Source of the DNA: Candidatus Sulfopaludibacter sp. SbA3
GTDB taxonomy: Bacteria > Cyanobacteriota > Cyanobacteriia > PCC-6307 > Cyanobiaceae
Assembly (NCBI GenBank): GCA_943367425.1
Contig: CALRJF020000011.1
Span: forward strand, 53,709-117,708
DNA length: 64,000 nucleotides
Reading direction: 5' to 3'
Made by a program: the position numbers and the translations under genes. This document shows, piece after piece, positions 18,069 through 50,659 of this stretch (positions are counted from its first letter, which is position 1; the number at the start of each line of letters is the position of its first letter). Below the pieces are notes generated by a model. The model was not told where the DNA came from. It did not search any database and saw only the letters and a program-made list of their open reading frames with translations.

Positions 18069-18073
18069 TCCAT

Positions 18074-19277: not shown

Positions 19278-19976
19278 ATGAATCTGGTGACATCTCATAA
19301 ACTTCCCATCAGCCTGCTCCCAGCTCCTCTTGGTCAAAATATCGCAACTTGGGCCATCCTAAATCCACAATTTAACCAAACTTATTTTGATGACTCCCAA
19401 ATGGAGTCTTGGATTAATGATAATTTATCGAAGCGGCTAATTAATGCATTCAAGCTTTTAAATACTGGAGCTGGCAAAGCCGACTTTTTCAGAATTGCTT
19501 TTATCAATAATTGCGGTGGCATATGGCATGACGCAGATTTACCCGCCTTTGATTTGCTGGCTCAAAGAAGTGACTTAATTGAAGTTTTAAAAAGCCATGA
19601 ATTGACACTAGTTCATAATCGCCATGGCGGGTTTAGGTATACCCTTATTGGCGGGCAGAGATCCTGTCTTTTATTGTCAGAGTTTTTAGACTACTTGGCT
19701 CAAGTTATTATAGACGAAAGCCTATGCCCTTCGGGCATAAAGACTATTGAGCTAACTGGGCCAATTTCTTTCATTCGCTTTTGTAATGACATCAAAGGCC
19801 TGAGCATTAAGTCCGGTGATGTATTTCGTCTTCTCAATCGAGAAATGATATGCATAAATGATATCGTCCCGGACAAAGGAGGCCAATCTGTTGAAAACAC
19901 AATTCCCGAGTATAGAAGATGCCTTGATGAAATGGGTGTTGAATACCATTACAACGCAAAAGCGACAATTGACTGA
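19278..19976 (+). CDS. GT32 (DxD sugar-binding) glycosyltransferase
   Basis: IATWAILNPQF..YFDD, KADFFRIAFINNCGGIWHDAD (GT32 D..R...L...GG.Y.D.D), LTGP. Confidence 0.8.
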   Translation: MNLVTSHKLPISLLPAPLGQNIATWAILNPQFNQTYFDDSQMESWINDNLSKRLINAFKLLNTGAGKADFFRIAFINNCGGIWHDADLPAFDLLAQRSDLIEVLKSHELTLVHNRHGGFRYTLIGGQRSCLLLSEFLDYLAQVIIDESLCPSGIKTIELTGPISFIRFCNDIKGLSIKSGDVFRLLNREMICINDIVPDKGGQSVENTIPEYRRCLDEMGVEYHYNAKATID

Positions 19977-20792
19977 GCCTTACAGACAGATCACTTGCAA
20001 ATACTGGGTTACTCTTGGAATATTGCGCAACAATTAACATGAAGCCGCAGTTATTGATCAAAATTTGAATTAAGGCAGGGCGAAGTCAGGAACTGCTTAG
20101 CCGTGGCGAAATTGGCTGTCTCCAAAAAGCTGGCGATGGGCAATGATGCTTCGCTGGGAATCGGTGGCTTCGTTGTAACAATAACCTGATTTCTCCCGCG
20201 GGCACGATCCCTAAAGTCTTCAACTGGCCCGCCTCTGCTGCTGCCGGTACTGCTTCCACTCTGGCGCATATGGTGTCAGTATCCTGGATTACATGGTCAG
20301 CCGCCGCAACAACAGCAGGATAGATGTTGCTGCTGATCGGCTCCAGTGGGCCCCCGCAGGATCCACCCAGATCTGACGCATCTGTTCGGCCAAAATGATA
20401 AGGTGGCCTTCGTGCAGATCAACTGTGGCGATTCAAAGCCAAGCAGCCCATCCAGGCAGTGTTGGGTCAGCTTAAAGAAATAGTCCTCAATGCTGCGTGC
20501 AATGACCCAGTACTTCTAAGGCTACAATTCGAGACAGAATCCACATTGGAGAGCCAACACCGCTGCTGAGGATGACTGGAACCAGAGAGCGCTAGATTCA
20601 CCCCGCCACCGAAGCGGTAGTCATAGGTCAGAAGTAATGTCGCAACCAGATGGATCGTCGGTACTCCAAAATTCGCCCCAATATGCTCCACAACTGGATT
20701 TGAAGGCAGATTCATTCAGGCCATCACCGCCGAAGCGGGAAATCAGATAGCGCCAACATTGCAGAGATACCTCCCCACTGGCCTTCCTAAAC

Positions 20793-34060: not shown

Positions 34061-34375
34061 CTACGCCCAACCGGCGAGGCGCCGCAGCGCCGCCGCCGAC
34101 GACCCCGCCCCGGCCAGCTCCAGGCCCTCCGCCAGGCTCAGCAGCGTCGCCTGCCGCTGGCTCAGGGCCACCTCCTCCTTCGGCGCCCCCAGCGCCTCGG
34201 CGTGGGCGAAGGCCAGCCCCGCCTGCTGCTGCTGCTGCCGCTCCAGGGCCGAGGGTTCGATCAGCTGGCTGAGGGCCACGCCGTAGCGCAGCCATGCGGC
34301 CGGCTCATGGCTCTCCAGCGGGTGGGCCGCCACCAGCGCCTCCCATGGCGCCTGTCTGCCGTCCCGATCGCTCAT
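34061..34375 (-). CDS. 104-aa hypothetical protein (standalone WLRYGVAL domain)
   Basis: ATGA overlap with the upstream gene at 34372-34375. Homologous to the N-terminus of the 23215..24453 protein. Confidence 0.75.
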   Translation of the reverse strand: MSDRDGRQAPWEALVAAHPLESHEPAAWLRYGVALSQLIEPSALERQQQQQAGLAFAHAEALGAPKEEVALSQRQATLLSLAEGLELAGAGSSAAALRRLAGWA

Positions 34376-36318: not shown

Positions 36319-36371
36319 GGCGGAGTGCACCAACGGGCCGAACGGCATAGGGTTCCGGCATCGATTCCAGC

Positions 36372-39305
36372 ATGGCTGCGATGCTCGCCGAGCCGCCCGG
36401 CACCCTGGACGACACCACCGCTTCCCTCGCCGAGCTGCGCCGTCCCGGCCTGGTGGGGCGGCTGGAGGGCTGGAGTCCCCAGACCGGCCTCAGCGGCTGG
36501 GCCTGCCCCTGGCCCCCCGATCCCCAGGCCCCGCCCCTGCGCCTGCGGCTGGTGCTCGAGGATCTGCTCGATCCCGGCCGGCGCCTGGCCATCGCCGAGC
36601 TGATGGCGGCCCAGGCCCGGCCCGACCTGGCCTCCCTGGGCATCGATCAGCCCTGCGGCTTCCGCTTCTGGTGGGGCTCCTCCCACCCCCTGCCCCCCTT
36701 CTCCCAGGGTCTGGTGCTGCGCCTGTTCGCCGCCGACGGGGCCGCCGCCGAGCTGGCCGGCAGTCCCCTGCGCATCGACGCCGCCACCTACCGGGAGATC
36801 GAGACCCAGCGCCAGCAGGGTCCCGCCCGCGACGGCGCCCTCACCCACCTCCAGGCCCCGGTCCTCCAGGGCTGGGGCCGGGGCAGCGAGCCCCTGCTGC
36901 TGCGCCTCGATGGCGGCCTCACCCTGCCCGTCGATCCCCCCGCCCCCCTGCCCGAGGGGCCCTGGCCCTTCCAGCTGCTGCTCCCCGCCGCCCTCGCCGA
37001 CGGCGCCGTGCACCACCTGCAGCTCGAAACCGCCTCCGGCCAGGTGCTGGATCAGCGCTTCGACCTGCTCCCCTTCCACCTCACCCCCTGGGCGGCCCTG
37101 CAGGAGCACGCCCGTCCCCCCTTCCCCGACGAGCTCTCCCCCCTCGCCCGCGAGCGCTACCGCAGCCTGCGCACCTGGCTGAGCTGGGCCGATCGGCACG
37201 GCACGCCCCTGCCCCCCGACCTTCCCCGGCTCCAGCGCCTGCTCGAGCGGCCCCTGCCCCGCAGCGACGGCCCGCCGGCCGCCGCCGGCAGCCACGAACC
37301 CGGCCCCGACGGCAGCCCCGTGCCCCGCCGGCCCCTGCAGCTGCCCCTGGCGGCGGAACCGCAGGTGTCGATCGTGATCCCGGTGCACAACCAGTTCGCC
37401 GTCACCCTGCGCTGCCTGGCCGCCATCGCCTATGCCCCCACCCGGGTGCCCTTCGAGATCCTCGTGGTCGACGACGGCTCCAGCGACGGCACCGCCGACG
37501 CCCTCGCCGCCGACGCCCCCGGCGTGCGCCTGATCCGCCACGACTTCGCCCGTGGCTTCAACCAGGCCTGCTGCAGCGGCGCCGCCGCCGCCCGCGGCTC
37601 CGTTCTGGTGCTGCTCAACAACGACACCGAACCCTGCGCCGCCTGGCTGGAGGAGCTGCTCGATCCCTTCGAGCGCTGGCCCGACACCGGCCTGGTGGGA
37701 GCCCAGCTGCTGCTCCCCGACGGCACGCTCCAGGAGGCCGGCGGCATCGTCTGGGGCAACGGCGACCCCTGGAACTACGGCCGCGGCGGCAACCCCCACG
37801 ACCCCCGCGTCGCCTACGCCCGCCAGGTGGATTACGTCAGTGGCGCTGCCCTCGCCATTCCCCTGGCACTGTGGAACCGGATCGGCGGCTTCAGCCCCGA
37901 GTTCTCCCCCGCCTACTACGAGGACACCGACCTGGCCTTCAAGGTGCGCCAGGCCGGCCACACGGTCCGCTACACCCCCCTCGCCCGGGTGATCCACCAC
38001 GAGGGCGTCAGCTGCGGCACCGACACCGCGGCCAGCACCGGGCTCAAGCGCTTCCAGGCCACCAACCGCCCCCTCTTCCAGCAGAAGTGGGCCAGCGCCT
38101 TCGAAGGCTGCAGCGAGCCGGGCCCGGCGGAAGCCGAAAGCATCAAGGACCGGGGGATCCTCGGCCGCGCCCTGTTCCTCGACCAGCAGACCCCCCGGCC
38201 CGACCGCGATGCCGGCAGCCATGCGGCCCTGGTGGAGATGGAGCTGCTCCAGGCCCTCGGCTGGAAGGTCACCCTGCTGCCCCTCAACCTCGCCTGGCTG
38301 GCCACCTACACCGAAGACCTCCAGCGCCGTGGCATCGAAGTCCTCCATGCCCCCTTCGTGCTCTCGCTTGAGGAGTTCCTGCGCGAACGCGGCCGTGAAT
38401 TCGACCTCCTCTACCTCACCCGCTACACCGTGGCCGCCGAGGCCCTGCCCCTGATCCACCGCTACGCCCCCCAGGCCCGCCTCCTGTTCTGCAACGCCGA
38501 TCTCCACCACCTGCGCCAGCTGCGCGCCGCCCGGGCCGAAGCCCTCGACGGCGACGCCGCCCGCCGGGCCCTGGAGGCGGTGGAGGAGGTGAAGCGCCAG
38601 GAGCTGGCGGTGATGCGCCAGGTGCACCTCACCTTCAGCTACTCGGATGTGGAACGGGCCGTGATCGAAGCGGAAACCCTCGGCGAGGCCGCCACCGCCC
38701 CCTGCCCCTGGGTGGTGCAGGGCCCCGAGGCGCCCGCCCCCCTGGAGGGCCGCAGCGGCCTCGCCTTCCTCGGCAGCTACGGCCACCCCCCCAACCACGA
38801 CGCCGTCGAGGCCTTCCTGGCTCAGGTGTGGCCCCAGCTCCAACAGCAGCGGCCCGGGCTGCGGCTGCACCTCTACGGCAGTGGCCTCTCCCCGGAGCTG
38901 GCCGCCCGCTGGGGGGCCGAACCCGGTGTCATCGCCGAGGGCTGGGTGGCCGATCCGGCCACCGTGTACGCCCGCCACCGTCTGTTCGTGGCCCCGCTGC
39001 GCTCCGGCGCCGGCCTCAAGGGCAAGGTGGTGGCCGCCGCCGCCCACGGCCTCCCCCAGGTGCTCAGCCCCCTGGCCGCCGAGGCCACCGGCCTGCGCCA
39101 CGGCCAGGAAGTGCTGATCGCCCGCAGCCCCGAGGAGTGGTGCCAGGCCGTGCTCCTCCTCAACGACGACGACGACGCCTGGCGGGCCATGGGCGACGCC
39201 GCCTTCCGCTACGCCCGCGCCACCTGGAGCCGGGAGCGTGGCCTGGCCCTGATGGCCGACGCCCTGGCCCGCCTCCAGCTGCCCCACCGGGTGCCCGGCC
39301 CATGA
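36372..39305 (+). CDS. multidomain GT2 + GT4-like glycosyltransferase
   Basis: VSIVIPVHNQ, VVDDGSSDGT, LLNNDTE, PAYYEDTDL (GT2). TPRPDRDAGS, FLGSYGHPPNHDAV, VAPLRSGAGLKGKV (GT-B). Confidence 0.92.
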   Translation: MAAMLAEPPGTLDDTTASLAELRRPGLVGRLEGWSPQTGLSGWACPWPPDPQAPPLRLRLVLEDLLDPGRRLAIAELMAAQARPDLASLGIDQPCGFRFWWGSSHPLPPFSQGLVLRLFAADGAAAELAGSPLRIDAATYREIETQRQQGPARDGALTHLQAPVLQGWGRGSEPLLLRLDGGLTLPVDPPAPLPEGPWPFQLLLPAALADGAVHHLQLETASGQVLDQRFDLLPFHLTPWAALQEHARPPFPDELSPLARERYRSLRTWLSWADRHGTPLPPDLPRLQRLLERPLPRSDGPPAAAGSHEPGPDGSPVPRRPLQLPLAAEPQVSIVIPVHNQFAVTLRCLAAIAYAPTRVPFEILVVDDGSSDGTADALAADAPGVRLIRHDFARGFNQACCSGAAAARGSVLVLLNNDTEPCAAWLEELLDPFERWPDTGLVGAQLLLPDGTLQEAGGIVWGNGDPWNYGRGGNPHDPRVAYARQVDYVSGAALAIPLALWNRIGGFSPEFSPAYYEDTDLAFKVRQAGHTVRYTPLARVIHHEGVSCGTDTAASTGLKRFQATNRPLFQQKWASAFEGCSEPGPAEAESIKDRGILGRALFLDQQTPRPDRDAGSHAALVEMELLQALGWKVTLLPLNLAWLATYTEDLQRRGIEVLHAPFVLSLEEFLRERGREFDLLYLTRYTVAAEALPLIHRYAPQARLLFCNADLHHLRQLRAARAEALDGDAARRALEAVEEVKRQELAVMRQVHLTFSYSDVERAVIEAETLGEAATAPCPWVVQGPEAPAPLEGRSGLAFLGSYGHPPNHDAVEAFLAQVWPQLQQQRPGLRLHLYGSGLSPELAARWGAEPGVIAEGWVADPATVYARHRLFVAPLRSGAGLKGKVVAAAAHGLPQVLSPLAAEATGLRHGQEVLIARSPEEWCQAVLLLNDDDDAWRAMGDAAFRYARATWSRERGLALMADALARLQLPHRVPGP

Positions 39306-40132
39306 GCAGCGAGCGCGACACCCTGCCCGAACCCCTCTCCGGCGTCCGGGAGCCGGCCGTGGTGGAGCTGCCCCCGGGCCGCCCCTGGCTGGCCCTCTCC
39401 GAACTCAACCGCCTCATCCGCCAGCAGGGCCAGGCCCGCCCCCTCGCCCGTGCCTGGCTGCTCGACCAGCTCGTGCATGCCATCCCCCTGCCCGCCGGCG
39501 AGGAAACGACCCTGATGGCCGCCTTCCTGCAGCAGCGGGGCATCACCAGCGACGATCAGGTGCCGGCCTGGCTGGCGGAGCGCGGCCTGGCCTTCGACGA
39601 CCTGCGCATCCTCGCCACCCAGCAGCAGCGCCTGCAGCGCCTGCAGCGCTGCCGCTGGGGCGACGAGGTGGAAGTGCGCTTCCTGCAGCGCAAGCCCGAA
39701 CTGGATCAGGTGGTCTATTCCTTGCTGCGGGTCGACAACGAGGACCTCGCCGCCGAACTGCACCACCAGATCGTCGAGGGTGAAGCCGACTTCGCCAGCC
39801 TCGCCCCGCGCCACTCCATCGGCCAGGAACGCCACAGCCGCGGCCAGATCGGCCCCATCTCCCTGGCGGCCGGCCACGACACCCTGGTGAGCCGCCTGCG
39901 CCGCGGCCGCCCCGGCCAGCTGTTCGAACCCTTCAAGGCCGGCGACAGCTGGGTGGTGCTGAGGCTCGAACAGTTCCTGCCGGCCGAGTTGAACGAAGCC
40001 ACCAGGGTCCGCATGATGGGCGAACTGTTCGAGGAATGGCTCGAACAACGGCTGCGGCTGCTCCTCGAGGGCCAGCCCCTGCCGCCCCTCGACGCCATCC
40101 TCGCCCTGTTGCAGGAGGATCCCGCCCCATGA
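39302..40132 (+). CDS. PpiC/parvulin-type peptidyl-prolyl isomerase (foldase)
   Basis: VVYSLLRV, EGEADFASLAPRHSIGQERHSRGQIGP, VVLRLEQFLPA. ATGA overlap with the GT gene. Confidence 0.85.
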   Translation: MSSERDTLPEPLSGVREPAVVELPPGRPWLALSELNRLIRQQGQARPLARAWLLDQLVHAIPLPAGEETTLMAAFLQQRGITSDDQVPAWLAERGLAFDDLRILATQQQRLQRLQRCRWGDEVEVRFLQRKPELDQVVYSLLRVDNEDLAAELHHQIVEGEADFASLAPRHSIGQERHSRGQIGPISLAAGHDTLVSRLRRGRPGQLFEPFKAGDSWVVLRLEQFLPAELNEATRVRMMGELFEEWLEQRLRLLLEGQPLPPLDAILALLQEDPAP

Positions 40133-43086
40133 CCTCGTCCCCCGGGGCCATCAGCGGCCTGCTCAACGACTTCACCCCCTTCGAGCGGCTTCCCGCCGCC
40201 CGGCTTGAGGCGATCGATCCCCTGCTGGAGCCCCTCCGCTTCCGCATCGGCCAGACGGTCCTGCGACCCGACGTGCTGCCCGAGGGCCTGCTGCTGGTCT
40301 GCAGCGGCCAGCTGCGCAGCCTCGGCCCCAGCCCCAGCGGCCGCGGCCTGCGCACCATCGAGCGGCTCGGCCCCGGCGCCATCGCCGGCTGGTCCGGCCT
40401 GCTGCGCCGCGACCCCTGCGAACACCTGCGGGCCACCACCGAGGTGGAGGCGCTGCAGCTGCCCGCCGCCGCCTTCCGCGACCTGCTCTCCGGCCACCCC
40501 GAGTTCGCCGCCTGGTTCGCCAACCAGCCCGCCGCCGCCGAACTCCACGCCCTGCTGCTGGCCCTGGCCCGGCGCGATCCCCTCGGCGAAACCCTGCTCG
40601 ACGACTGGCCCCTGCCGCCCGAGCAGGTGCGCCTGCGCAGCCTGCAGCCCGGCGCGCCCCCCGAACTCGGCCTGCCCCCCGGCTTCCGCTGGTATGCCAG
40701 CAGCGGCCTGCCCCTGGCCGAACCCTGGTCCGACCGTCCGCTCCAGCCCCCGGGCCCCGACGCGCCCTGGCTGCGCCTGGTGGGACTGGCCGTTCCCCGC
40801 GAGGCCGAGGCGCCGATCACCCTGGGCGCCGAACCCCTCACCCCCGCCGTCTTCACCGAAGTGGTGAACCCCGGCGACGTCTACGCCGCCAGCGTGGAGC
40901 CCCCGCCGCGCCGCGCCGGCGACCGCAGCGGCGTGCTCAGCCTGGGCCGTGCCAGCGGCCCCCGCGCCGTGCCCATGGCCCTGTGCCAGGCCCTGGCCGA
41001 CTACTTCGGCCTGCCGCTGAACCGCGACGCCCTCGCCGACCAGGTCGACGCCATCCTGCAGCGCCAGGACCGGCTCAACCTGGTCAACATCGGCCAGATC
41101 ATGGACACCTTCGGCCTGCGGGTGGTGCTCACCCGCGTGCCCGCCAGCCGCCTGGGGCGGGTGCCCGCCCCGGCCCTGCTGTTCCAGAACGGCCACTTCG
41201 GCCTGCTCGATGGTGTCGAGCCCGACGGCCGCGCCCGCCTGCTCGAGGCCGAACTCGGCGCCCTGCTGGTGCCGGCCCAGGAGCTCGTCACCCACGACGG
41301 CGGGATGGTGGAACTGCTCCTGTTCGACCGCAAGCCCGATGCCAAGCAGCGCCGCTTCGACTGGAGCTGGTACTTCCCCTTCCTGCGCCAGCACCGCCGC
41401 GAGCTGATCGAGGTGCTGGTGGCCTCGCTGGTGATCAACGCGCTGAAGCTCGTCTTCCCCCTCGGCCTGATGGTGCTGATCCAGAGCGTGGTGGCCAGCC
41501 GCAACATCAGTGCCCTGGTGAGCATCGCCAGCGTGATGCTGCTCGCCGCCCTGGTGGAAAGCATCTTCCGCACCCTGCGCAGCTTCCTGTTCACCGACCT
41601 GGCCAACCGGGTCGACCAGGACGCCAAGGCCACGATCCTCGACCAGCTGGTGCGCCTGCCCCAGGGCTTCTTCGATGCCCGTCCCGTGGGCACGATCACC
41701 TTCTATTTCTCCCAGCTCGACCGCCTGCGCGATTTCCTGCTCGGCCAGACCCTGCCCACCCTGGTCGACTTCGCCTTCAGCTTCCTCTACCTGGCGATCC
41801 TGTTCGCCATCAGCCCCCTGCTCACCCTGGTCACCCTGGCCACCCTGCCCCTGATCCTGGTGGTGGCTCTGGTGAGCAATCCCCTGGTGCGCAGCCAGGT
41901 CAACCGCACCATGGCCCAGGCCGTGAAGGCCTCCAGCTTCCTCAACGAGGCCATCACCGGCATCCAGACGATCAAATCCCAGAACGCCGAACTCAAGACC
42001 CGCTGGGAATTCCAGAACCGCTATGCCGCCTACATCGGCGAAGACTTCAAGCTCAAGGTCACCCGCGAATCGATCGCCAACCTCTCCACCTTCCTCAGCA
42101 ATCTCAGCCAGCTCATCGTCATCGCCGTGGCGATCTGGCTGGTGATCCAGGGCCAGCTCAACCTCGGCGCCCTGATCGCTTTCAACATCCTTTCGGGCTA
42201 CATCAAGCAGCCCCTGGTGCAGCTGGTCAGCACCTGGCAGGACTTCCAGTTCAACTCCCAGTCCCTGCGCATGGTGGCCGACGTGGTCGACCGCGACACC
42301 GAGCAGACCACCGAGCAGGCCAGCAACATCCCCCTGCCCCCCCTCCAGGGCCGGGTTCAGTTCGTGGATGTGGCCTTCCGCTTCCGCGACACCGGTCCCC
42401 TGGTGCTCGACGGGGTGGATCTGGAGATCCCCGCCGGCTCCTTCGTGGGCCTGGTGGGCGGCTCCGGCAGCGGCAAGTCCACCCTGCTCAAGCTCCTTTC
42501 CCGCTTCTATCCCCCCGAGCGGGGCAGCGTGCTGATCGATGGTCTCGACATCGGCAAGGTGGAGCTCTATTCCCTGCGCCGCCAGATCGGCGTGGTGCCC
42601 CAGGATTCGCTCCTCTTCGACGGCACGATCCGCGAAAACCTGCTGATGGTGAAGCCCGATGCCACCGCCGCCGAGATGATCCGCGCCGCCCGCATCGCCT
42701 GCGCCCACGACTTCATCATGCAGATGCCCCAGGGCTACAACTCCAGCGTCGGCGAGCGGGGAGCCGGCCTCTCCGGCGGCCAGCGCCAGCGCCTCGCCCT
42801 GGCCCGCGCCGTCCTCCAGAACCCCCGCATGCTGATCCTCGACGAGGCCACCAGCGCCCTCGACGCCACCACCGAGCGCCAGGTCTGCATCAACCTCTTC
42901 GAGGCCTTCCGCGGCCGCACCGTCTTCTTCATCACCCACCGCCTCTCCACCGTCCAGCCCGCCGACACGATCGTGCTCATGGACCGGGGCGCCGTGATGG
43001 AAAAGGGCAACCACCGCCAGCTCATGCAGCTGCGCGGCTGGTACTACGCCCTCTACCGCAGCCAGAACCAGGAGGGCCTCAGCTGA
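40129..43086 (+). CDS. type I secretion ABC transporter (cNMP-binding + C39-like + TMD + NBD; HlyB-like)
   Basis: N-terminal cNMP-like domain, ABC membrane domain, GGSGSGKST, LSGGQRQR, LILDEATSALD, ITHR. Confidence 0.95.
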   Translation: MTSSPGAISGLLNDFTPFERLPAARLEAIDPLLEPLRFRIGQTVLRPDVLPEGLLLVCSGQLRSLGPSPSGRGLRTIERLGPGAIAGWSGLLRRDPCEHLRATTEVEALQLPAAAFRDLLSGHPEFAAWFANQPAAAELHALLLALARRDPLGETLLDDWPLPPEQVRLRSLQPGAPPELGLPPGFRWYASSGLPLAEPWSDRPLQPPGPDAPWLRLVGLAVPREAEAPITLGAEPLTPAVFTEVVNPGDVYAASVEPPPRRAGDRSGVLSLGRASGPRAVPMALCQALADYFGLPLNRDALADQVDAILQRQDRLNLVNIGQIMDTFGLRVVLTRVPASRLGRVPAPALLFQNGHFGLLDGVEPDGRARLLEAELGALLVPAQELVTHDGGMVELLLFDRKPDAKQRRFDWSWYFPFLRQHRRELIEVLVASLVINALKLVFPLGLMVLIQSVVASRNISALVSIASVMLLAALVESIFRTLRSFLFTDLANRVDQDAKATILDQLVRLPQGFFDARPVGTITFYFSQLDRLRDFLLGQTLPTLVDFAFSFLYLAILFAISPLLTLVTLATLPLILVVALVSNPLVRSQVNRTMAQAVKASSFLNEAITGIQTIKSQNAELKTRWEFQNRYAAYIGEDFKLKVTRESIANLSTFLSNLSQLIVIAVAIWLVIQGQLNLGALIAFNILSGYIKQPLVQLVSTWQDFQFNSQSLRMVADVVDRDTEQTTEQASNIPLPPLQGRVQFVDVAFRFRDTGPLVLDGVDLEIPAGSFVGLVGGSGSGKSTLLKLLSRFYPPERGSVLIDGLDIGKVELYSLRRQIGVVPQDSLLFDGTIRENLLMVKPDATAAEMIRAARIACAHDFIMQMPQGYNSSVGERGAGLSGGQRQRLALARAVLQNPRMLILDEATSALDATTERQVCINLFEAFRGRTVFFITHRLSTVQPADTIVLMDRGAVMEKGNHRQLMQLRGWYYALYRSQNQEGLS

Positions 43087-44615
43087 TGACCACCCCGTCC
43101 GGCCCCACCGATCCCGGCTCCCGCCTCGTGGCCCTGCTGGAGGGCTGCGTCGGCTGGCTGCGCTCCCCCCGCGCCCGCCGCCCCCAGCCCGTCATCCCCG
43201 TCCGCGTCGACCTGGTCGGCCACCCCTCCCTCCCGGCCAGCTCCCCGCCGGGCAGCGTTCCCGCCGCCGCCCCGGAGAAGCCGGCGCCCCCTGCCGACGA
43301 ACCCGCCCATCCCTTCGGCGGCGGCATCGCCACCACCGGCTCCCCCACCTCCCAGGAGTGGTCGTTCCGGGAAACCGTGGTGCTTCGCAAGAGCCACCGC
43401 AGCTCCAGCCTGCTGCTCTGGGCCGGGGTGGGGGGCGTGGCCGCCCTCGGCCTCTGGAGCGTCACCGCCACGATCTCCGAAACCATCGCCGTGCCCGGCA
43501 AGCTCGAACCCTCCAGCTCCGTCAAGGAGGTGGATTCCCCCGTGCCCGGCGTGGTGGAGGAGGTGCTGGTCAAGGAAGGCCAGGCGGTCACCAAGGGGCA
43601 GCCCCTGATCCGCTTCGACCTGCGCGAACCCCGCAGCAAACTGGCCGCCGCCGAGAGCATCCGCGAACGGCTGCTCAACGAGAACCGCGTCGCCCGCGCC
43701 ACCCTCGGCGAGGACCCCGCCACCGTCGGCCTCACGGCCAACCAGCAGAGCCAGCTGCGCGACCGCGCCCGCGAACGCAGCAGCCGCCTCGATGCCGCCC
43801 GGGAGGAGCTGGCCAAGAGCACCGTGCGCCTCGCGGGCTTCCGCGATTCCCTGCGCATCTACACCGACATCGAGCGCCGCTACGACTCCCTCGTCCGCGT
43901 CGGCGCCGTCAGCGAGGTGCAGCTCCTGGAGGCCCGCAACAAGATGCAGGATCTGCGCGCCAGCGTGAGCGAGGAGGAGCGCGAGATCGCCCGGCTCCGC
44001 TCCCAGCTGATCAACACCGGCTCCGCCCCCGACGTGGAGCTGCGCACCGCCATCGAGGCCAACCTGCGCCAGATCAGTGACCTCGACGCCCAGATCCGCC
44101 AGGCCCGGCTGCAGATCCAGTACGGCGTGCTCACCGCCCCCAGCGACGGCCTGGTGTTCGACATCGTCCCCAGCGCCGGCAGCGTGGTGGGCGCCAGCGA
44201 AGCCAGCCCCCTGCTCAAGGTGGTGCCCCAGGAATCCCTGCGGGCCAAGGTCTACCTGCCCAACAAGGCCATCGGCTTCGTGCAGGTGGGGCAGGCCGCC
44301 GACATCTCCATCGAGACCTTCCCCGCCAACGACTTCGGCTATGTGCCGGCGAAGGTGCAGCGCATCGGCTCCGATGCCCTCACCCCCGAGGAGCAGACCA
44401 AGGTGCTCGGCACCGAGGCGGAGGGGCTGCACTACCCGGTGATCCTCCAGCTCGGCCGCCAGTCCATCTCCCTGCCCAACCGCACCAGCGTGCCCCTCCA
44501 GGCCGGCATGGCCCTCACCGCCGACGTCAAGTTGCGCGATCGGCGTGTGATCAGCCTGCTCACCGGCCTGTTCGAGGATCAGCGCCGCAACCTCCAGCGG
44601 CTGCGGGCCCATTGA
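43086..44615 (+). CDS. HlyD family type I secretion membrane fusion protein
   Basis: TM anchor, PGKLEP..VKEVDSPVPGVVEEVLVKEGQAVTKGQPL, coiled coil, LTAPSDGLV, LQAGMALTADVKL. Confidence 0.93.
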   Translation: MTTPSGPTDPGSRLVALLEGCVGWLRSPRARRPQPVIPVRVDLVGHPSLPASSPPGSVPAAAPEKPAPPADEPAHPFGGGIATTGSPTSQEWSFRETVVLRKSHRSSSLLLWAGVGGVAALGLWSVTATISETIAVPGKLEPSSSVKEVDSPVPGVVEEVLVKEGQAVTKGQPLIRFDLREPRSKLAAAESIRERLLNENRVARATLGEDPATVGLTANQQSQLRDRARERSSRLDAAREELAKSTVRLAGFRDSLRIYTDIERRYDSLVRVGAVSEVQLLEARNKMQDLRASVSEEEREIARLRSQLINTGSAPDVELRTAIEANLRQISDLDAQIRQARLQIQYGVLTAPSDGLVFDIVPSAGSVVGASEASPLLKVVPQESLRAKVYLPNKAIGFVQVGQAADISIETFPANDFGYVPAKVQRIGSDALTPEEQTKVLGTEAEGLHYPVILQLGRQSISLPNRTSVPLQAGMALTADVKLRDRRVISLLTGLFEDQRRNLQRLRAH

Positions 44616-44887
44616 GCCCCGCCCCCCCCGACGACTGGTGGCGCTACGTGCCGGCCCACCAGCGCCCCCGGCGGCGCTTCAAGGCCTGGCGCCTGCGCTG
44701 GCGGGAGCGGCTACGCCATCGCGGCGTGGCCATCACCCTGGCCCTGCTCGCCTACGGCCTGATCCTGCTCTGGCTGCTCCGGCACCTGCCGCCGGTGGTG
44801 GCCCTGCTGGCCGTGGCGCCCATGGTGCTCGTCCCCCTGCTCGGCTACCTCACCTACTGGCTGCTGTGGAAGGAATTCCACGAGTGA
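44612..44887 (+). CDS. small membrane protein
   Basis: Basic N-terminus and two hydrophobic helices, ends WLLWKEFHE. TTG start overlaps the HlyD stop. Confidence 0.7.
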   Translation: MSPAPPDDWWRYVPAHQRPRRRFKAWRLRWRERLRHRGVAITLALLAYGLILLWLLRHLPPVVALLAVAPMVLVPLLGYLTYWLLWKEFHE

Positions 44888-44908
44888 AGGGCGCGCGGCG
44901 CCGCCCCC

Positions 44909-46006
44909 TCAGCTCTTCACGTAGAGGCTGGGCAGGGCGCCCAGCAGCCACTGGGGCATGAACTGCTCCCCGCCCGCGAAACCGATCTTGCCGGGCGGGA
45001 AGAAGGGCAGCACCGCCAGCACCGCCTGGGCGGCCTTCGGACGGGTCATGTTGCGCACGTAGCGGGCCAGCTGGGTGCGCAGCTGCAGGTCGTCGTCCCC
45101 CAGGGGCGTGGCCGCGTAGCCGCTGCGCAGGAACTTGCGGTAGGCCTCACCGAAGCGGCTCTCGAACAGGGGCTGCAGCTGATCATCGGCGCACTCCAGC
45201 CAGATCTGGCCCAGCTGGCGCCGGTAGCCCCCCAGCTCCTGGAGGATGGCGGCGTCGTCGGGGTCGATCTCGAACAGGTTGACCAGCCCGTTGAGCCGGG
45301 TGAGGAACTCCTCGTTGCCGGTGAGCTCCAGGGCCTGGGCGCCCCCGTAGGCGGACAGCCGCGGCAGCGGCGGCAGGTCCGCCTCCCGCCCCGATCCCCC
45401 CGCCGGCGCCAGGGCCTTGCGGGGCCGGGGGCTGGGCTGGCGCAACCGGGGCAGAATCTCCGGCTCGAACAGACTGGCGTAGTCCTCGAGCAACCAGGCG
45501 GGCAGGTTCTGTTCGCAGTTGCGCACCGTCATCTTGCCGCGGCGGAAATAGGGCATCACCGCCAGAAGGATGTTCACCATTTCCGGCCGATCAAAGCCGC
45601 TGAACAAACGCTGAGAGAGAGTGTCCCTCCAGGCTTCTTCATCCCGCAGCAATGGTTGGGAAGCCAGCTCGGTTCCGATCATCTGCCGATAGCAGTCGCC
45701 GATCGCCGAGCCGTACAGAAGTTCGAGCGTATCGATCGGCGCATTCAGCCAGAACTTCGACAGGCACTGGCGTGCCAGCCGCGCCTCCGCCACCCGGGTG
45801 GGGGTGGCTTCGTGGGCGAAATCCAGGAAGATCGTGGCCAGCCGTGCCGTCGACCAGGGGGTGATCTCGGGCCGCCGGGCCATCTCCAGCGGCACGGTGC
45901 CCGGATCACTCACCAGAGTATCGAGCAAGGCACCTTCGTTCTCCACCTTTCTCTCACCCCAGCTGACCGTGTCCCGACCACCGAACAGACGGCTCCAGAG
46001 TGACAT
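44909..46006 (-). CDS. hypothetical protein made of two tandem homologous domains
   Basis: LLAVMPYFRRGKM..EQNLPAWLL and VLAVLPFFPPGKI..EQFMPQWLL end the two repeats. Confidence 0.8.
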   Translation of the reverse strand: MSLWSRLFGGRDTVSWGERKVENEGALLDTLVSDPGTVPLEMARRPEITPWSTARLATIFLDFAHEATPTRVAEARLARQCLSKFWLNAPIDTLELLYGSAIGDCYRQMIGTELASQPLLRDEEAWRDTLSQRLFSGFDRPEMVNILLAVMPYFRRGKMTVRNCEQNLPAWLLEDYASLFEPEILPRLRQPSPRPRKALAPAGGSGREADLPPLPRLSAYGGAQALELTGNEEFLTRLNGLVNLFEIDPDDAAILQELGGYRRQLGQIWLECADDQLQPLFESRFGEAYRKFLRSGYAATPLGDDDLQLRTQLARYVRNMTRPKAAQAVLAVLPFFPPGKIGFAGGEQFMPQWLLGALPSLYVKS

Positions 46007-46050
46007 CAGGCAGACCGAGAGACGCAGCGGGATTGTAATAGCGTTGGCCG

Positions 46051-47256
46051 ATGGAACTGTTGCTGATCCATCAGAACCATCCCGGCCAGTTTCGTGATCT
46101 GATTCCCGCTCTCGAGCGCCGCGGCCATCACGTTCTGGGCCTCGGCGCCACCCCCCGTGGCCAGCGGTTCGACTACGCCTGGCAGGCTCCCGCCCTGCCG
46201 GAGGATCTGGCCGATCCCTTGCTGGAAACCAGCCTGCGCCGGGCGGCGCGGGTCCAGGAGCGCTGCCTGCAGCTGCGCGACCAGGGCTGCCGTCCCGACG
46301 CCGTCGTCGCCCACAGCGGCTGGGGCGAACTCCTCTATCTGCGCGACGTCTGGCCCCGGGCGGTGCTGATCGCCTACCCCGAGCTCTACGCCGCCCCCCA
46401 CCTGCTGGGCTACGGCTTCGATGCCGACCTGGGCGAACCCTCCCCTGCCCAGCGCGCCCACTGGCGTCGCGGCAATCTGATGGGGCTGGCGGCGATCGCC
46501 GATGCCGACGCCTGCGTCGTGCCCACCCGCTTCGCCCGCGACACCTTCCCCCCCCACCTGCGCGGCCGCTTCCACGTGCTGCACGAGGGCATCGCCCTGC
46601 CGCCGCCGCCCGCTGCCGGCGGCCCGGCCACCATCCAGCTGGAGGACGGGCCCACCCTGCGCAAGGGGGATCCGGTGATCACCTATGCCAGCCGCAACCT
46701 CGAACCGCTGCGCGGCTTCCGCAGCTTCTTCCGCGCCCTCCCGGCGGTGTTCGCGGCGCGGCCCGACGCCCGGGTCGTGATCGTGGGCGGCACCGACACC
46801 GGCTATGGCTCCCCTTCCTCCCATCCAGGGGGCCACAAGGGCGAACTGCTGGCCCTGCTCGGCCACCGCCTGCCCCTCGACCGCCTCCACTTCCTGCCGC
46901 CCCTGCCCCACCGGGAGCTGCTGGCCCTGTTCCGCGTCAGCGCCGCCCACGTCCACCTCTCCTATCCCTATGCCCTCTCCTGGAGCGTGCTGGAGGCGAT
47001 GGCCTGCGGCGCCCTGGTGGTGGGCTCCGACAACCCGCCGCTGAGCGAGCTGATCCGCCACGGCCACAGCGGGCTGCTGGTGCCCTTCAACGACACCGAC
47101 CGTCTGGCCGACCAGCTGCTGGCCGTACTGGCCGATCCCGGGCGGTTCGCGGCGATGGCCGAAGCCGGCCGGGCCACGGTCGCCGCCCGCTATGAGGTGA
47201 ACCGGGCCGCCGAGGCCTACGAGGCCCTGATCCGCAGCCTGCAGCTGCTGCCGTGA
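46051..47256 (+). CDS. GT4 family glycosyltransferase
   Basis: IHQNHPGQF, VVAHSGWGE, RNLEPLRGF, SYPYALSWSVLEAMACGALVVGSD. Confidence 0.93.
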   Translation: MELLLIHQNHPGQFRDLIPALERRGHHVLGLGATPRGQRFDYAWQAPALPEDLADPLLETSLRRAARVQERCLQLRDQGCRPDAVVAHSGWGELLYLRDVWPRAVLIAYPELYAAPHLLGYGFDADLGEPSPAQRAHWRRGNLMGLAAIADADACVVPTRFARDTFPPHLRGRFHVLHEGIALPPPPAAGGPATIQLEDGPTLRKGDPVITYASRNLEPLRGFRSFFRALPAVFAARPDARVVIVGGTDTGYGSPSSHPGGHKGELLALLGHRLPLDRLHFLPPLPHRELLALFRVSAAHVHLSYPYALSWSVLEAMACGALVVGSDNPPLSELIRHGHSGLLVPFNDTDRLADQLLAVLADPGRFAAMAEAGRATVAARYEVNRAAEAYEALIRSLQLLP

Positions 47257-47271
47257 ACAGACCAGCAGGGA

Positions 47272-48594
47272 TCAGCGCCGGTCGCTGCGGCGGCAGCGCA
47301 TCCAGAGGCCCAGCGCCTCCAGCACGGTGTCCACCACCCGGCCCCAGTCGCGGTCGCTCCCCTGGCGGAACAGGCGCAGGCTGGGGTACCAGGGGCTGTC
47401 CGGGCGGTCCCGCAGCCAGCGGGGATCGGCGCTGAAGGGCAGCAGCACCCAGGCCGGATGGCCCATGGCGCCGGCCAGATGGGCCATGGCGGTGTCCACC
47501 GAGATCAGCAGATCGGTGCCGGCGAGCCCCCGGGCCGCCGCCAGAAAATCCCCGTCGGCGGCGTCCTGGCGGCGGAACAGGTGCTGCAACGGCTGGGCCA
47601 GCTCCCGATCGTCCCCATGCTGGAACGGCACCGGCTCACAGCCGCGGGCCACCATCCCCTCCACCAGCCGCTGCAGCGCCCAGCCGGGCAGCGACCGTTT
47701 CCGGTACTCCCGCCGGGTGAAGCCATCCTCCAGCTTGCGACCGCTCGCCCAGGTGAGGCCCACCAGCGGTGGCCGTCGATCCGAGTCGGAGAGATCCACG
47801 GCCCCCAGCCCCCGGAGGTAGCCCCCAGTCCCCTCCGCAGCCGGGAGCTGGGGGGAAGGTGCCCCACCCAGCAATGCCGGCAGCGACAACAGGCTCACCG
47901 CGCCGCCAGGCGCCGACGACTCCGCCAGGGACCGCACCGCCACCGGGGCAGGCAACCAGGTCAGCCCCTTCTCAACCAGGCTCACCATCGCCGGCTCCAC
48001 CTCCAGCACCAGCGACTGGCCCCGGGCCCCGGCCCGCTCCTGCAGCAGGGGGATCCAGCGCAGGTACTGGAGGCCATCGCCGAAGCCCTGCTCGCTCCGC
48101 ACCCGCAGCACCGGAGCCGTTGTCAGCAGCGTCGCCGGGTCGGGGTGGAGGGCCGGGTCGCGGCCGGCGAGCTCATGACGGCGCTCCGCCAGGGCGAAGG
48201 CGTCGGCGTAGGCCTCCAGGCCGATCAGCAGGGCGGCGTGGTTGCAGGCCACCTCGGCGGAATCCCGCAGCTCCCGGCTGGCCCGGAAGGCGCGATCGGC
48301 CGCCTCGAAGCGGTTCAGGTCCCGCAGGCAGTTGCCCAGGCCCATGAAACCGGCGGCACTGAGGGGTTCCAGCAGCGACGCCCGCTGATACAGCCCCAGG
48401 GCCTCCTCGGGCTGATCCGAAAGCCAGAGGGCGTTGGCGGCCCTCACCAGCACATCCGGCGACGCCCCACCACTACTGATCGCCTCAAGGTAGATGCAGG
48501 CCGCCTCTTGCCATTCATTAAGCCGTTCTGCCGCCTTCGCCTCCAGAAGCATCTGGTTGATGGTTAATTCGGGAAGGAGAGGCGTCCTGAACAT
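47272..48594 (-). CDS. TPR + GT9-like glycosyltransferase
   Basis: TPR helices (MGLGNCLRDLNRFEAA), EQGFGDGLQYLRW, LISVDTAMAHLAGAMG..WVLLP..PRW. Confidence 0.88.
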   Translation of the reverse strand: MFRTPLLPELTINQMLLEAKAAERLNEWQEAACIYLEAISSGGASPDVLVRAANALWLSDQPEEALGLYQRASLLEPLSAAGFMGLGNCLRDLNRFEAADRAFRASRELRDSAEVACNHAALLIGLEAYADAFALAERRHELAGRDPALHPDPATLLTTAPVLRVRSEQGFGDGLQYLRWIPLLQERAGARGQSLVLEVEPAMVSLVEKGLTWLPAPVAVRSLAESSAPGGAVSLLSLPALLGGAPSPQLPAAEGTGGYLRGLGAVDLSDSDRRPPLVGLTWASGRKLEDGFTRREYRKRSLPGWALQRLVEGMVARGCEPVPFQHGDDRELAQPLQHLFRRQDAADGDFLAAARGLAGTDLLISVDTAMAHLAGAMGHPAWVLLPFSADPRWLRDRPDSPWYPSLRLFRQGSDRDWGRVVDTVLEALGLWMRCRRSDRR

Positions 48595-48877
48595 GGGGAT
48601 GATTTAAAGAGAATTCCAGGTACGTTTCACTGGAAATTTCCCTGGTCAGGGAATCAGCGTTTCCCTGCAGATGCCAGGGGCCAGACAGTGCCATAATGCA
48701 CTCCTGGACAAGGTTGGCTGCAGTGATGACGCAGATGAGCGGCATCGCAACGCCTTGTCAAGTGTGGCCATTTGCTGATGCGGTCAAGGCCGCCCGAGGC
48801 CAATGGACAAATCGTAACAACGACAACTTCCACCCCGCCTACCGCGCTCTAACGTCCGCTCACAGATAGGAATTCCC

Positions 48878-49645
48878 GTGGCATCCTCTTCAACACTGGC
48901 CATCTTTGTTCCTCCCGTCGGTACAACCGTCGTTCAGGACACAGCCTCTGGATCGAAGGTGTCCACCACCCAGTTTGTGGACACCACGAGAAGCCGGATC
49001 TTCCCCGGCGACCTGGGAAACATCGTCACTGATACGGGGATCAAGGAGGCCACCTCCGGCAACACCAGCACCACCTTCTCCGGCCGCACCAACGACACGT
49101 CCTATGTCGGCAACGATGACACCAACAGTGTCAACTTCACCGGCACGGCAAGGAATCTCACGGCCGACCTCGGTAAGGGCAACGATTCATTCCGTTCCAC
49201 CGACATCATCGACAGCTCCATTTCCCTGGGGGATGGCAACGACACGTCGGTGACTCGCTACACCACCGATACCACGATCACAACCGGTGCCGGCAACGAC
49301 AGCGTCACCATCCTCAAATCCGCCAACTCGGTTTCGATTGACACGGGAACCGGCGACGACACCCTGATCTTCGGCGGCAAGGTCACCAATTCCGAGGTCC
49401 TCCTCGGCCAGGGCGCCGATCAGGCCACGTTCAGCGGCCCCATCACCAACACCACCATCAACCTGGGCGGGGATACCGACCTTGACACCGTCACCGTGAA
49501 TTCCAAGTCCGATCTTGGTACCGGTACGGTGATCACCGGCGCCGGTGAGGGCGACCTCCTCATCATCGGTGGCGAAGAGTACGTCTTCGACAACAGCAAG
49601 CAGGCCTTCATCTCCGGCAGCAACGACTCCATCAGCTTCGGTTGA
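48878..49645 (+). CDS. RTX-like Gly/Asp repeat, Ser/Thr-rich secreted protein (candidate T1SS cargo)
   Basis: Repeats LGKGNDSF, LGDGNDTS, TGAGNDSV, TGTGDDTL, LGQGADQA about every 19 aa. No signal peptide. GTG start after AGGA. Confidence 0.8.
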   Translation: MASSSTLAIFVPPVGTTVVQDTASGSKVSTTQFVDTTRSRIFPGDLGNIVTDTGIKEATSGNTSTTFSGRTNDTSYVGNDDTNSVNFTGTARNLTADLGKGNDSFRSTDIIDSSISLGDGNDTSVTRYTTDTTITTGAGNDSVTILKSANSVSIDTGTGDDTLIFGGKVTNSEVLLGQGADQATFSGPITNTTINLGGDTDLDTVTVNSKSDLGTGTVITGAGEGDLLIIGGEEYVFDNSKQAFISGSNDSISFG

Positions 49646-49669
49646 TCCCCATCGTCTGCCACGGGGCCC

Positions 49670-50659
49670 TTGGATCAGGCCAGATTCGCCCGTAACTACA
49701 TCGCCTGTACCGAGCGGGGGGACGTCGTTGCCACGAAGTCCCTCCTCTTTCTTTGGGTCAAGACCTATTTCGCCTCCCTCTCACCGGCACCCAGTCGTCA
49801 GGAACTCACCAACCCCGACCTCTGGGGCTGCCTGGCCCAGTACGCCTCCGTCACCGGTGATCACGCTCCAGTCGACGACTTCTGGTCGCGGCTCGACGGC
49901 ATCAGCCCCTGCGCCGAGCCGTCCGCCAGCATCCCGCTGCTGGGCGTGCCGATCCTCAATCGCCCCGATCTGCTCGAACGGCTGATCGAGAGCATCGACG
50001 CGCCTGTCGACACCCTGGCGATCGTCGACAACAGCGTCGGCTCCGGCCTGGCGGACAGCGACGCCCTCTCCCGCCTGCTCCGGCAGCTCGAACGGGAACC
50101 CCCCGGCGCCATCCAGCAGGTGAAGGTCTCGCGGCCCTTCAACAACCAGGGGGTGGCCGCCAGCTGGAACGCGATCCTCTCGTCGTTTCCCCACGCCGCC
50201 TACGCCCTGCTCGTCAACAACGACGTGGTCTTCCCCCCGGGGGCCCTGGGCCAGGTGATCGAGCGGATCAACCCCGCCAGGCCCCAGTTCCTGCCGATGC
50301 TGCCGGCGCCCCAGGAGTTCTCGGCCTTCGCCCTCACGCCGGGCGTCTGGGATCGGGTGGGACTGTTCGACGCCAGCTTCTACCCCGCCTACTGCGAGGA
50401 CCTGGAATACATCGAGCGGCTGCGCCTCGACCCGACGGTCGAATGGATCGTGCTCGATTCCCTTCAGGACGCCCTGGAGCGCTGCAACCCCACGGTGAGC
50501 GCCACCATCGCCAGCGACCCTCGGCTGGAGGCCTGCAACCGGACCACCCACCTGCTCAACTGCCTCTGGCTGCACAGCCTCAGGCGCCTGGAGGCCCCCC
50601 ATCGCGGCACCTGGATGCGGCGCTGGCTCAGCCAGTGGGATCTCGAGCCCCTCCCCTGA
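49670..50659 (+). CDS. GT2-like glycosyltransferase
   Basis: LGVPILNRPDLL, AIVDNS, NQGVAASWN, LVNNDV, FDASFYPAYCEDLEY. Confidence 0.8.
   Translation: MDQARFARNYIACTERGDVVATKSLLFLWVKTYFASLSPAPSRQELTNPDLWGCLAQYASVTGDHAPVDDFWSRLDGISPCAEPSASIPLLGVPILNRPDLLERLIESIDAPVDTLAIVDNSVGSGLADSDALSRLLRQLEREPPGAIQQVKVSRPFNNQGVAASWNAILSSFPHAAYALLVNNDVVFPPGALGQVIERINPARPQFLPMLPAPQEFSAFALTPGVWDRVGLFDASFYPAYCEDLEYIERLRLDPTVEWIVLDSLQDALERCNPTVSATIASDPRLEACNRTTHLLNCLWLHSLRRLEAPHRGTWMRRWLSQWDLEPLP

Follow-up and report, generated by a model that had tools for sequence, protein, structure and literature searches.

How do proteins exported in a single step by a type I secretion system (T1SS) come to carry sugars? 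Glycosylated repeats-in-toxin (RTX) proteins form the S-layers and motility surfaces of cyanobacteria, as with SwmA, oscillin and the Synechocystis S-layer protein, and to our knowledge the way in which such one-step substrates acquire their sugars is not known. The question is raised by a cluster of 11 genes in the 64 000-nucleotide stretch of contig CALRJF020000011.1 studied here (C11:53709-117708; hereafter the window), which encodes a T1SS pump, a parvulin-like chaperone, several glycosyltransferases (GTs) and a small candidate cargo. The source assembly (3.33 Mb, 99.7% complete) is that of a lake Cyanobium-type picocyanobacterium; the window has a GC content of about 70% by its composition profile, and the nearest relatives of its proteins are in Cyanobium and freshwater Synechococcus genomes. 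A sequence-only reading had seen in the cluster a cytoplasmic assembly line that chaperones, glycosylates and exports a surface glycoprotein, and our analysis partly supports this interpretation as a whole. We give an even chance to the cluster being a lineage-specific, GT-linked variant of the cyanobacterial haemolysin-class T1SS that makes and exports a glycosylated surface protein.

Gene content was assigned by Pfam and NCBIfam scans, and the junctions were read directly from the sequence. The operon lies on the plus strand and starts with a gene for a 977-aa fusion of GT2 and GT4-type domains (36372-39305; Glycos_transf_2 76.8 bits, Glyco_trans_1_4 72.9 bits). An ATGA overlap at 39302-39305 joins it to the gene of a 276-aa parvulin-like protein (39302-40132; Rotamase 25.6 bits, cut-off 21.7), and a second ATGA overlap at 40129-40132 leads into that of a 985-aa HlyB-class ATP-binding cassette (ABC) exporter (40129-43086; cNMP_binding, ABC_membrane and ABC_tran; TIGR01846 606 bits). 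The gene for a 509-aa HlyD-type membrane fusion protein (43086-44615; HlyD_3 64.3 bits, cut-off 22.2; TIGR01843 193 bits) follows in the sequence TGATG, with an overlap of 1 nt at 43086. The last member encodes a two-transmembrane (two-TM) mini-protein of 91 aa (44612-44887; two hydrophobic spans, no family), and its TTG start overlaps the TGA of the HlyD gene at 44612-44615. The gene list and the 1-4 nt overlaps of the sequence-only reading are all present. The window also lacks a TolC-type gene, as had been noticed; the three OEP-family genes of the genome are located on contigs C21, C9 and C5. A promoter and terminator scan was uninformative, with 0 promoters and a terminator count not above the shuffle expectation.

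The operon is flanked by six more genes. Upstream and divergent from it, outside the coordinates of the earlier reading, lies the gene of a 658-aa orphan protein (34372-36348, minus strand). Downstream are the genes of a 365-aa soluble orphan (44909-46006, minus), a GT4 glycosyltransferase of the PF12000 family (46051-47256, plus; Glyco_trans_4_3 121.7 bits), a protein with tetratricopeptide repeats and a weak GT9-like part (TPR/GT9; 47272-48594, minus), a 255-aa Ser/Thr/Gly/Asp-rich, RTX-like protein (48878-49645, plus) and a GT2-like protein (49670-50659, plus).

The conservation of this layout was studied by tblastn of the window proteins against 25 species loci of the Cyanobium clade, and in the whole family by a search with the GT2-GT4 protein followed by retrieval of the flanks, which gave 12 full-cluster loci from other genera. 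Gene order and orientation are identical in 21 of the 25 Cyanobium-clade loci, that is, in all those whose contigs extend far enough, and the order holds in at least 10 genera of the family, where protein identity falls to 41-60%. The same cluster is present in Cyanobium gracile PCC 6307 (locus L050, which includes Cyagr_1144). The full-length GT2-GT4 gene lies directly upstream of the chaperone, ABC and HlyD genes in 13 of 13 loci (the window and the 12 from other genera); homologues with a different N-terminus (L060-L062) are found without a nearby T1SS. The genes of the 365-aa orphan and the TPR/GT9 protein are present in all full loci, and the GT2-like gene keeps its position after the RTX-like gene in both sets. 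In the Cyanobium clade, 24 of the 25 loci have the 658-aa orphan gene beside that of GT2-GT4 (it is absent from the short contigs L016 and L022), and it is found in 11 of the 12 other-genus loci. The PF12000 GT4 occurs in eight of these 12, being missing in L051, L052, L058 and L059, and a homologue of the 255-aa protein in 21 of the 25 and six of the 12. Within the Cyanobium clade, protein identity is highest for the ABC protein (87-93%), followed by the chaperone, GT2-GT4, HlyD and GT4 (77-88%), the GT2-like protein (66-71%) and the TPR/GT9 protein (61-66%), and lowest for the 255-aa protein (41-57%), the fastest-evolving of the cluster. These data support the cluster genes as one conserved functional unit. 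The synteny survey that had been proposed thus finds the layout in 25 Cyanobium-clade species and at least 10 genera, and the loci combining a prolyl isomerase-like protein, a T1SS and GTs that had been expected in other cyanobacteria do occur.

Two arrangements outside the window provide the strongest support for a coupling of glycosylation and export. One is a gene fusion: in four genomes of Nostocaceae, a PF12000 GT4 and the parvulin-like chaperone, whose catalytic residues are lost (see below), form one open reading frame (ORF) of 696-743 aa. The fusion was read in L037:8063-10285 (G144, 741 aa) and L097 (G278, 743 aa), with the GT4 N-terminal and the chaperone C-terminal, and was deduced in G065:C113 and G104:C8 from the identical open-frame lengths of both matches. 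The L037 fusion adjoins HlyB-HlyD and has five GGxGxD RTX ORFs around it. The other is a gene pair at C5:155807-164154 of the present genome, where a 2316-aa RTX ORF with 27 GGxGxD motifs is followed, 48 nt later, by a paralogue of the GT4 gene (C5:155807-157159). A TolC-like gene (C5:195185-196453) is located about 30 kb from this pair. Elsewhere, a GT4 homologue is encoded directly after HlyD in L027 (chaperone-ABC-HlyD-GT4) and beside an RTX gene in L031. Among the 125 genomes that have the GT4, at least 19 carry a homologue no more than 10 kb from a chaperone gene, the chance expectation being roughly estimated at 1-2%. The stop-start overlap between the GT2-GT4 and chaperone genes, and their linkage in 13 of 13 loci, point the same way.

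The partner in this fusion had been described as a parvulin-type peptidyl-prolyl isomerase. The parvulin fold is confirmed, by the Rotamase score and by Foldseek searches with an AlphaFold2 (AF2) model with a predicted local distance difference test score (pLDDT) of 85. The model matches PrsA/SurA over its full length (6vj6_A, E 1.9e-8, probability 1.0), and PrsA, SurA and PEB4-type chaperones are aligned over 230-290 columns, together with isolated parvulin domains. The isomerase function is not expected to be retained. A 32-sequence profile was aligned to PrsA (6vj6) and to Pin1. In place of the catalytic His, Cys/Asp and His (equivalents of Pin1 H59, C113 and H157), it has Leu (in YSLLRV), a Gly that does not vary (in SxGxER) and Val (in WVVLRLE); with all three residues lost, the protein cannot be a prolyl isomerase. 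Sequence and hydropathy analyses found no signal peptide, lipobox or hydrophobic span, and the absence of a signal peptide places it in the cytoplasm. Judging from its sequence and model, we read this pseudo-parvulin not as an isomerase but as a chaperone or adaptor that serves the T1SS in the cytoplasm. It has the overall fold of PrsA and SurA, a helical N-/C-terminal chaperone domain around a parvulin domain, and differs from them in the missing signal peptide and lipobox, in the replaced catalytic residues and in its genetic tie to a T1SS and a GT4, which extends to the fusion with GT4 in Nostocales. Its N-terminus bears a near-invariant motif, LPEPLSG(V/L)PE (residues 8-16; window 39302-39370), which is modelled as disordered (pLDDT about 50) and resembles a short linear docking peptide for a partner.

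The ABC protein consists of an N-terminal cyclic-nucleotide-binding (cNMP) domain, a C39-like domain, a six-helix transmembrane domain and a nucleotide-binding domain (Pfam ABC_membrane 125 bits, ABC_tran 118 bits). The best bacterial relatives of residues 327-979 in the PDB are structures of Escherichia coli HlyB (7sgr/8dck). The region between the cNMP and transmembrane domains matches the C39 domain of PCAT1 (4ry2; E 9e-8 to 1e-6) when a 15-sequence profile is used; a single-sequence phmmer search against the PDB gave no match for it, and Pfam Peptidase_C39 reaches 13.8 bits only. In the column of the PCAT1 catalytic Cys21, the family consensus has Glu and the window protein Val, and the conserved Cys of the family corresponds to the second, non-catalytic Cys of the DCGxxC motif. 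The catalytic His column varies among family members, and His is retained in the window protein, as it is in HlyB. The cNMP domain and the C39-like domain without its catalytic Cys support, at the sequence level, the assignment of the exporter to the haemolysin class of T1SS, rather than to the bacteriocin exporters or leader peptidases. The HlyB-type T1SS first suggested therefore stands, with these two domains added to it.

HlyD has one transmembrane segment (a hydrophobic span near residue 108) preceded by some 105 aa of N-terminal extension, which is rich in Pro and cytoplasmic. Its residues 1-127 (window 43086-43470) could not be aligned to the HlyD of paralogous triads. The following two-TM ORF, 88-99 aa long, carries the motifs WW(R/Q)xVP ... 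GYLxYWLxW(K/R)(E/D)FH (in one form WWRFVP ... GYLxYWLxWKEFHE). It begins -3 to +6 nt from the HlyD stop in 34 of the 36 GT-linked loci examined, the exceptions being L056, which has no such ORF, and L022, where the contig stops earlier. In seven paralogous triads (L026-L034), no such ORF follows HlyD. This distribution marks the two-TM ORF as a genuine gene that is confined to the lineage of GT-linked T1SS.

The system resembles the E. coli HlyB-HlyD-TolC exporter of HlyA in its non-catalytic C39-like domain that retains the His, its HlyD adaptor and a TolC encoded elsewhere, and its candidate substrate is, like HlyA, an acidic, Cys-free, Gly/Asp-repeat protein of Ca2+-binding type without an N-terminal signal. 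It differs from the E. coli system in the additional N-terminal cNMP domain, the dedicated cytoplasmic PrsA/SurA-like partner, the two-TM protein and the linked genes, five for GTs instead of one for an acyltransferase; the repeats of the cargo are 19-20 residues long and not tandem nonapeptides.

The triad of chaperone, ABC and HlyD genes is much more widespread than the cluster. Parvulin-like homologues were found in 160 of the 401 sampled genomes of the phylum, in up to six copies per genome, and all of these belong to the 178 sampled genomes of the class; there are none in the 223 others. Of 20 loci from different families, 17 have a cNMP/C39-like ABC gene after the parvulin-like gene, and in 16 of these a HlyD match comes next. 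The genome studied here has a second triad (C14:71846-76799, L034), with about 37-49% identity to that of the window, which lacks both the GT2-GT4 gene and the two-TM ORF; an 830-aa RTX ORF (C14:40974-43464) is located about 30 kb from it. The module is not without an earlier description, having been catalogued, although as bacteriocin clusters: Wang, Fewer and Sivonen (2011) described SurA/rotamase, a long CAP_ED/C39 ABC protein and HlyD as the 'group I' putative bacteriocin cluster, with 57 clusters in 42 of 43 cyanobacteria (PMC3140520). Double-glycine precursors amounted to 0.35 per group I cluster, against more than three in groups II-V (PMC3140520). The same triad is present here, one to three copies being found in nearly all cyanobacteria and two in the window genome. 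The GT2-GT4 fusion, the two-TM protein, the 365-aa orphan and the TPR/GT9 protein are not part of that description; moreover, the catalytic residues of both peptidase and rotamase are missing here, and the recurrent neighbours are RTX genes and GTs. The triad itself is thus not new, and its bacteriocin label is contradicted here.

What would such a pump export? The 255-aa protein has no Pfam match and no signal peptide. It has 31 Asp and Glu against 13 Lys and Arg, no Cys and 29% Ser and Thr, and turns of the GxG(N/D/A)D type recur in it every 19-20 residues, at positions 99, 118, 137, 157 and 177. The AF2 model is an all-beta solenoid (pLDDT 93.5, predicted template modelling score (pTM) 0.90), and the structure closest to it in fold is 3p4g, the beta-helix of Marinomonas antifreeze protein, which is Ca2+-dependent (probability 1.0, template modelling (TM) score 0.49-0.54); RTX domains of CyaA, lipases and serralysins appear as lower-ranked matches of low probability. 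We take 3p4g to be region IV, with its 19-residue repeat, of the RTX adhesin that Marinomonas primoryensis secretes by a T1SS (MpAFP). The two proteins are alike in the repeat of about 19 residues, the GxGND-type turn and the Ca2+-dependent type of beta-helix. The match is at the level of the fold (17-20% identity, TM score about 0.5), the window protein stands alone with its 255 aa, and nothing in it suggests ice binding.

The earlier description of this gene as Ser/Thr-rich and RTX-like agrees with the modelled Ca2+-type beta-solenoid, the Ser/Thr content and a profile link to an RTX ORF, with one qualification: there is no canonical array of GGxGxD nonapeptides in the protein and no PF00353 match in the window. 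The link is made by the hidden Markov model (HMM) of the 255-aa family, which matches a 914-aa RTX ORF in L031 (E 3e-16); this ORF has ten GGxGxD motifs and lies directly after the HlyD gene of a paralogous triad in another genus. The family has 83 matches, mostly unnamed, a few being called 'Ca2+-binding RTX toxin-like'. Its C-terminal I-x-F-G is conserved, with an invariant final F-G, and other RTX ORFs in the genome likewise have a short hydrophobic tail ('FLFG' in one case). With these properties of a T1SS substrate, predicted from sequence and model, the 255-aa protein is most likely the cargo, or one among several cargoes. The genome has only two chaperone-ABC-HlyD pumps and about 10 RTX proteins encoded elsewhere, so that the pump of the window probably has further cargoes. 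At L056:15710-17572, from a genome of another genus (G474), the TPR/GT9 gene is followed by a tandem pair of ORFs, each about 250-270 aa long and with much Ser, Thr, Gly, Asp and Asn; the first alone matches the RTX-like HMM (E 9e-9), and the pair may be a duplication of the cargo.

Two other features of the 255-aa protein were considered and rejected. A double-glycine leader around the conserved Gly15 does not fit, since Pro and not Gly is at position -2 and the peptidase is dead. N-glycosylation of the HMW1C type is not supported either: there are nine NxS/T sequons, three of them in GNDS/T turns, and orthologues have one to five, at unconserved positions.

The cluster is counted as encoding four or five GTs. 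In the GT2-GT4 protein, an N-terminal part without a family match (about 1-320) precedes the GT2 domain (about 330-545) and a GT-B/GT4-type domain (about 795-950). The GT2-like protein, whose gene starts 24 nt past the 255-aa gene, reaches 20.4 bits with Glycos_transf_2, below the cut-off of 23.3. The TPR/GT9 protein has TPR matches and 17 bits with PF01075 (cut-off 22); its catalytic part matches WaaC heptosyltransferase I (2gt1) weakly (E 0.002), over about 80 residues of the nucleotide-sugar region, and the full-length profile of the protein retrieved TPR proteins only from the PDB. It is, from these matches, a candidate protein-directed glycosyltransferase. Hydropathy analysis detected no hydrophobic span in any GT of the cluster, and we accordingly read these enzymes as cytoplasmic from their sequences. 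If they act on the cargo, they would do so in the cytoplasm and before export, as a T1SS bypasses the periplasm. The TPR/GT9 and GT2-like genes, which flank the cargo gene, also evolve fast, as might enzymes that track a variable surface protein. PF12000 GT4 homologues (E 1e-35 to 1e-53) were also found in family f34, a group of non-photosynthetic cyanobacterial relatives of the same phylum and another class with genomes of about 2 Mb; these have no parvulin-like chaperone, so the PF12000 GT family is broader than its association with T1SS.

Cytoplasmic glycosylation before export is known for beta-helical adhesins, by AAH for AIDA-I, by TibC for TibA (AAH and TibC being GT9-related heptosyltransferases) and by HMW1C for HMW1. 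The present system resembles these in its soluble GTs, its beta-solenoid repeats of about 19 residues and the GT9-like enzyme encoded beside the substrate gene. It departs from all three in the route, which here would be a T1SS and not type V secretion via Sec, and in the weak GT9 similarity (E 0.002); the unconserved NxS/T sequons set it apart from HMW1/HMW1C, and N-glycosylation of that type is unlikely. Within cyanobacteria, a close parallel is SwmA, the glycosylated RTX S-layer protein of Synechococcus WH8102, for which genetics reportedly showed the need for a multicomponent transporter and glycosyltransferases. McCarren and Brahamsha (2005/2009) are said to have dealt with the swimming motility of this strain and the transporter cluster SYNW0192-0195. 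The latter probably corresponds to the paralogous triad (about 40% identity) and not to the GT2-GT4-linked lineage. That system likewise handles a glycosylated RTX surface protein, with a cargo of 130 kDa encoded elsewhere. Both SwmA and oscillin have been reported as glycosylated cyanobacterial RTX proteins (PMC3034196).

Taken as a glycoprotein exporter, the cluster could work as follows. The beta-solenoid protein, and possibly also large RTX proteins encoded elsewhere, would remain unfolded in the low-Ca2+ cytoplasm, held by the dead-parvulin chaperone while soluble, nucleotide-sugar-dependent GTs decorate their Ser/Thr-rich repeats. The chaperone would then pass the substrate to the ABC protein at its C39-like domain, for export in one step through ABC-HlyD and one of the three TolC-like proteins encoded elsewhere. 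Folding on extracellular Ca2+ would give a glycosylated surface or S-layer-type protein, and the cNMP domain would put the export under second-messenger control.

Several observations weigh against this reading. It is built on genes and models, from which we infer the secretion and glycosylation of the 255-aa protein, and we know of no mechanistic demonstration, in any system, of the export of a glycosylated chain by a T1SS. The window is a large glycan-gene region, so the adjacency of the GTs may partly reflect polysaccharide synthesis. The fusion evidence covers the PF12000 GT4, which is missing from four of the 12 other-genus loci, and not the GT2-GT4 enzyme. No homologue of the 255-aa protein was detected in the fetched flanks of L053-L055 and L057-L059, half of those 12 loci, and the protein may therefore not be the sole or essential cargo; the approximately 10 canonical RTX genes elsewhere in the genome, including a 5519-aa open frame, also speak against it as the only one. 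RTX ORFs, counted from five GGxGxD motifs upwards, occur near triads in four of 20 loci against a baseline of 6% taken from one genome (p about 0.03), a weak enrichment. A threshold of two motifs was dropped, having a background of 29% in this GC-rich genome. Finally, the pump scores below the NCBIfam equivalence cut-offs of its best-scoring models (TIGR01846, 606 against 725; TIGR01843, 193 against 208), which points to a divergent subfamily of T1SS.

A bolder version of the same idea is possible, though we lean against it: a dedicated cytoplasmic 'glyco-chaperone' route, in which the dead PrsA/SurA-like protein holds unfolded RTX-type substrates, recruits GTs to them and delivers the glycosylated chain to the C39-like domain of a cNMP-gated ABC protein. 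The PF12000 GT4 is the enzyme fused to it in Nostocales, and GT2-GT4, TPR/GT9 and GT2 would be those recruited in the Cyanobium lineage. If true, no pathway for the glycosylation of T1SS substrates would have been defined before this one, and the widespread 'group I bacteriocin clusters' would be surface-glycoprotein exporters.

The main rival, which we consider unlikely and still the most serious, is that the T1SS exports an unglycosylated RTX or S-layer-type protein and the GTs build a separate surface glycan or lipopolysaccharide-like anchor. In Caulobacter, the T1SS genes of RsaA stand beside O-antigen genes needed for S-layer attachment. The abundance of glycan-synthesis genes in the window fits such a division of labour, as do the resemblance of the two-domain GT2-GT4 to polymerising polysaccharide GTs and the occurrence of its homologues with another N-terminus away from T1SS (L060-L062); glycosylation of the cargo, for its part, is something that we infer rather than have observed. 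A GT fused to a chaperone is however hard to square with a lipid-linked glycan substrate, a protein partner is suggested by the TPR domain of the GT9-like enzyme, the genes of GT2-GT4 and the chaperone are translationally coupled, and Pfam and NCBIfam scans found no flippase, Wzx/Wzy or ABC-2 export genes among the cluster genes. The fusion and the TPR domain argue against this rival for the GT4 and TPR/GT9 enzymes, and not for GT2-GT4.

It is improbable that the ABC-HlyD pump exports no protein and works like NdvA/ChvA or DevBCA/HgdBC, on a glycan or glycolipid that the coupled GTs produce. A GT gene does stand at the head of the operon, and the ABC protein scores on NF010178 (314 bits) and on the HepA family (323 bits). 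Both scores are far under the cut-offs of these models and under that of the HlyB model (606 bits), however, and the C39-like substrate-docking domain, the T1SS-type HlyD and the protein chaperone are all present, with RTX genes directly adjacent in paralogous loci.

More improbable still is the absence of any functional link, with a housekeeping T1SS in a glycan-gene neighbourhood and an unrelated 255-aa protein that is cytoplasmic or leaves the cell by another route; T1SS cargoes are indeed often encoded elsewhere, as the approximately 10 canonical RTX genes on other contigs would be, but stop-start overlaps, a gene order kept to 41-60% identity in at least 10 genera and GT4-chaperone fusions are not expected of it. 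Least credible is a bacteriocin cluster, or one for other peptides that are made on ribosomes and modified after translation (RiPPs), in which the C39 domain cleaves a double-glycine leader and the rotamase matures the peptide: the SurA, CAP_ED/C39 ABC and HlyD architecture (PMC3140520) and a weak TIGR04500 'peptide maturation' match of the parvulin-like protein (37.9 bits, cut-off 180) agree with it, whereas the catalytic Cys is absent across the ABC family, the His is not conserved, the rotamase catalytic residues are gone, group I averages 0.35 precursors per cluster against more than three in groups II-V (PMC3140520), and a crude regex scan of window 30-55 kb gave no ORF with a double-glycine leader.

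The two orphan proteins of the cluster resemble no described family. The 365-aa protein has no Pfam or NCBIfam match; its 103 homologues are unnamed or 'hypothetical' in all but the weakest case, and the named ones are cyanobacterial, mostly from Cyanobium and Synechococcus (e.g. Cyagr_1144). The 658-aa protein has no Pfam match even at E<=10 and 67 representatives among 1.84 billion proteins. Only 23 nt separate its start from that annotated for the divergent GT2-GT4 gene, so that the true start codon of either gene, or of both, may be further inside. Elsewhere in the window, positions 15500-20100 form a block of about 41% GC within the 70% GC surroundings, probably by horizontal acquisition.

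The present analysis adds to the known triad an 11-gene conserved unit, a lineage-specific two-TM protein, the structural identification of a cargo candidate, an RTX-GT4 gene pair and the GT4-chaperone fusions. It also gives grounds to re-label a module that is found in nearly every cyanobacterium and is still listed as a bacteriocin cluster by genome mining. The natural fusion of a GT with the chaperone hints at a physical connection of the glycosylation and export steps. The pump, the dead-parvulin chaperone, the two-TM protein, four or five GTs and a small cargo candidate form a compact, conserved and genetically testable set, with which the way that T1SS substrates are glycosylated can be tested directly. 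In major aquatic primary producers, surface proteins of this kind probably have an influence on grazing, on the attachment of phages and on mineral nucleation.

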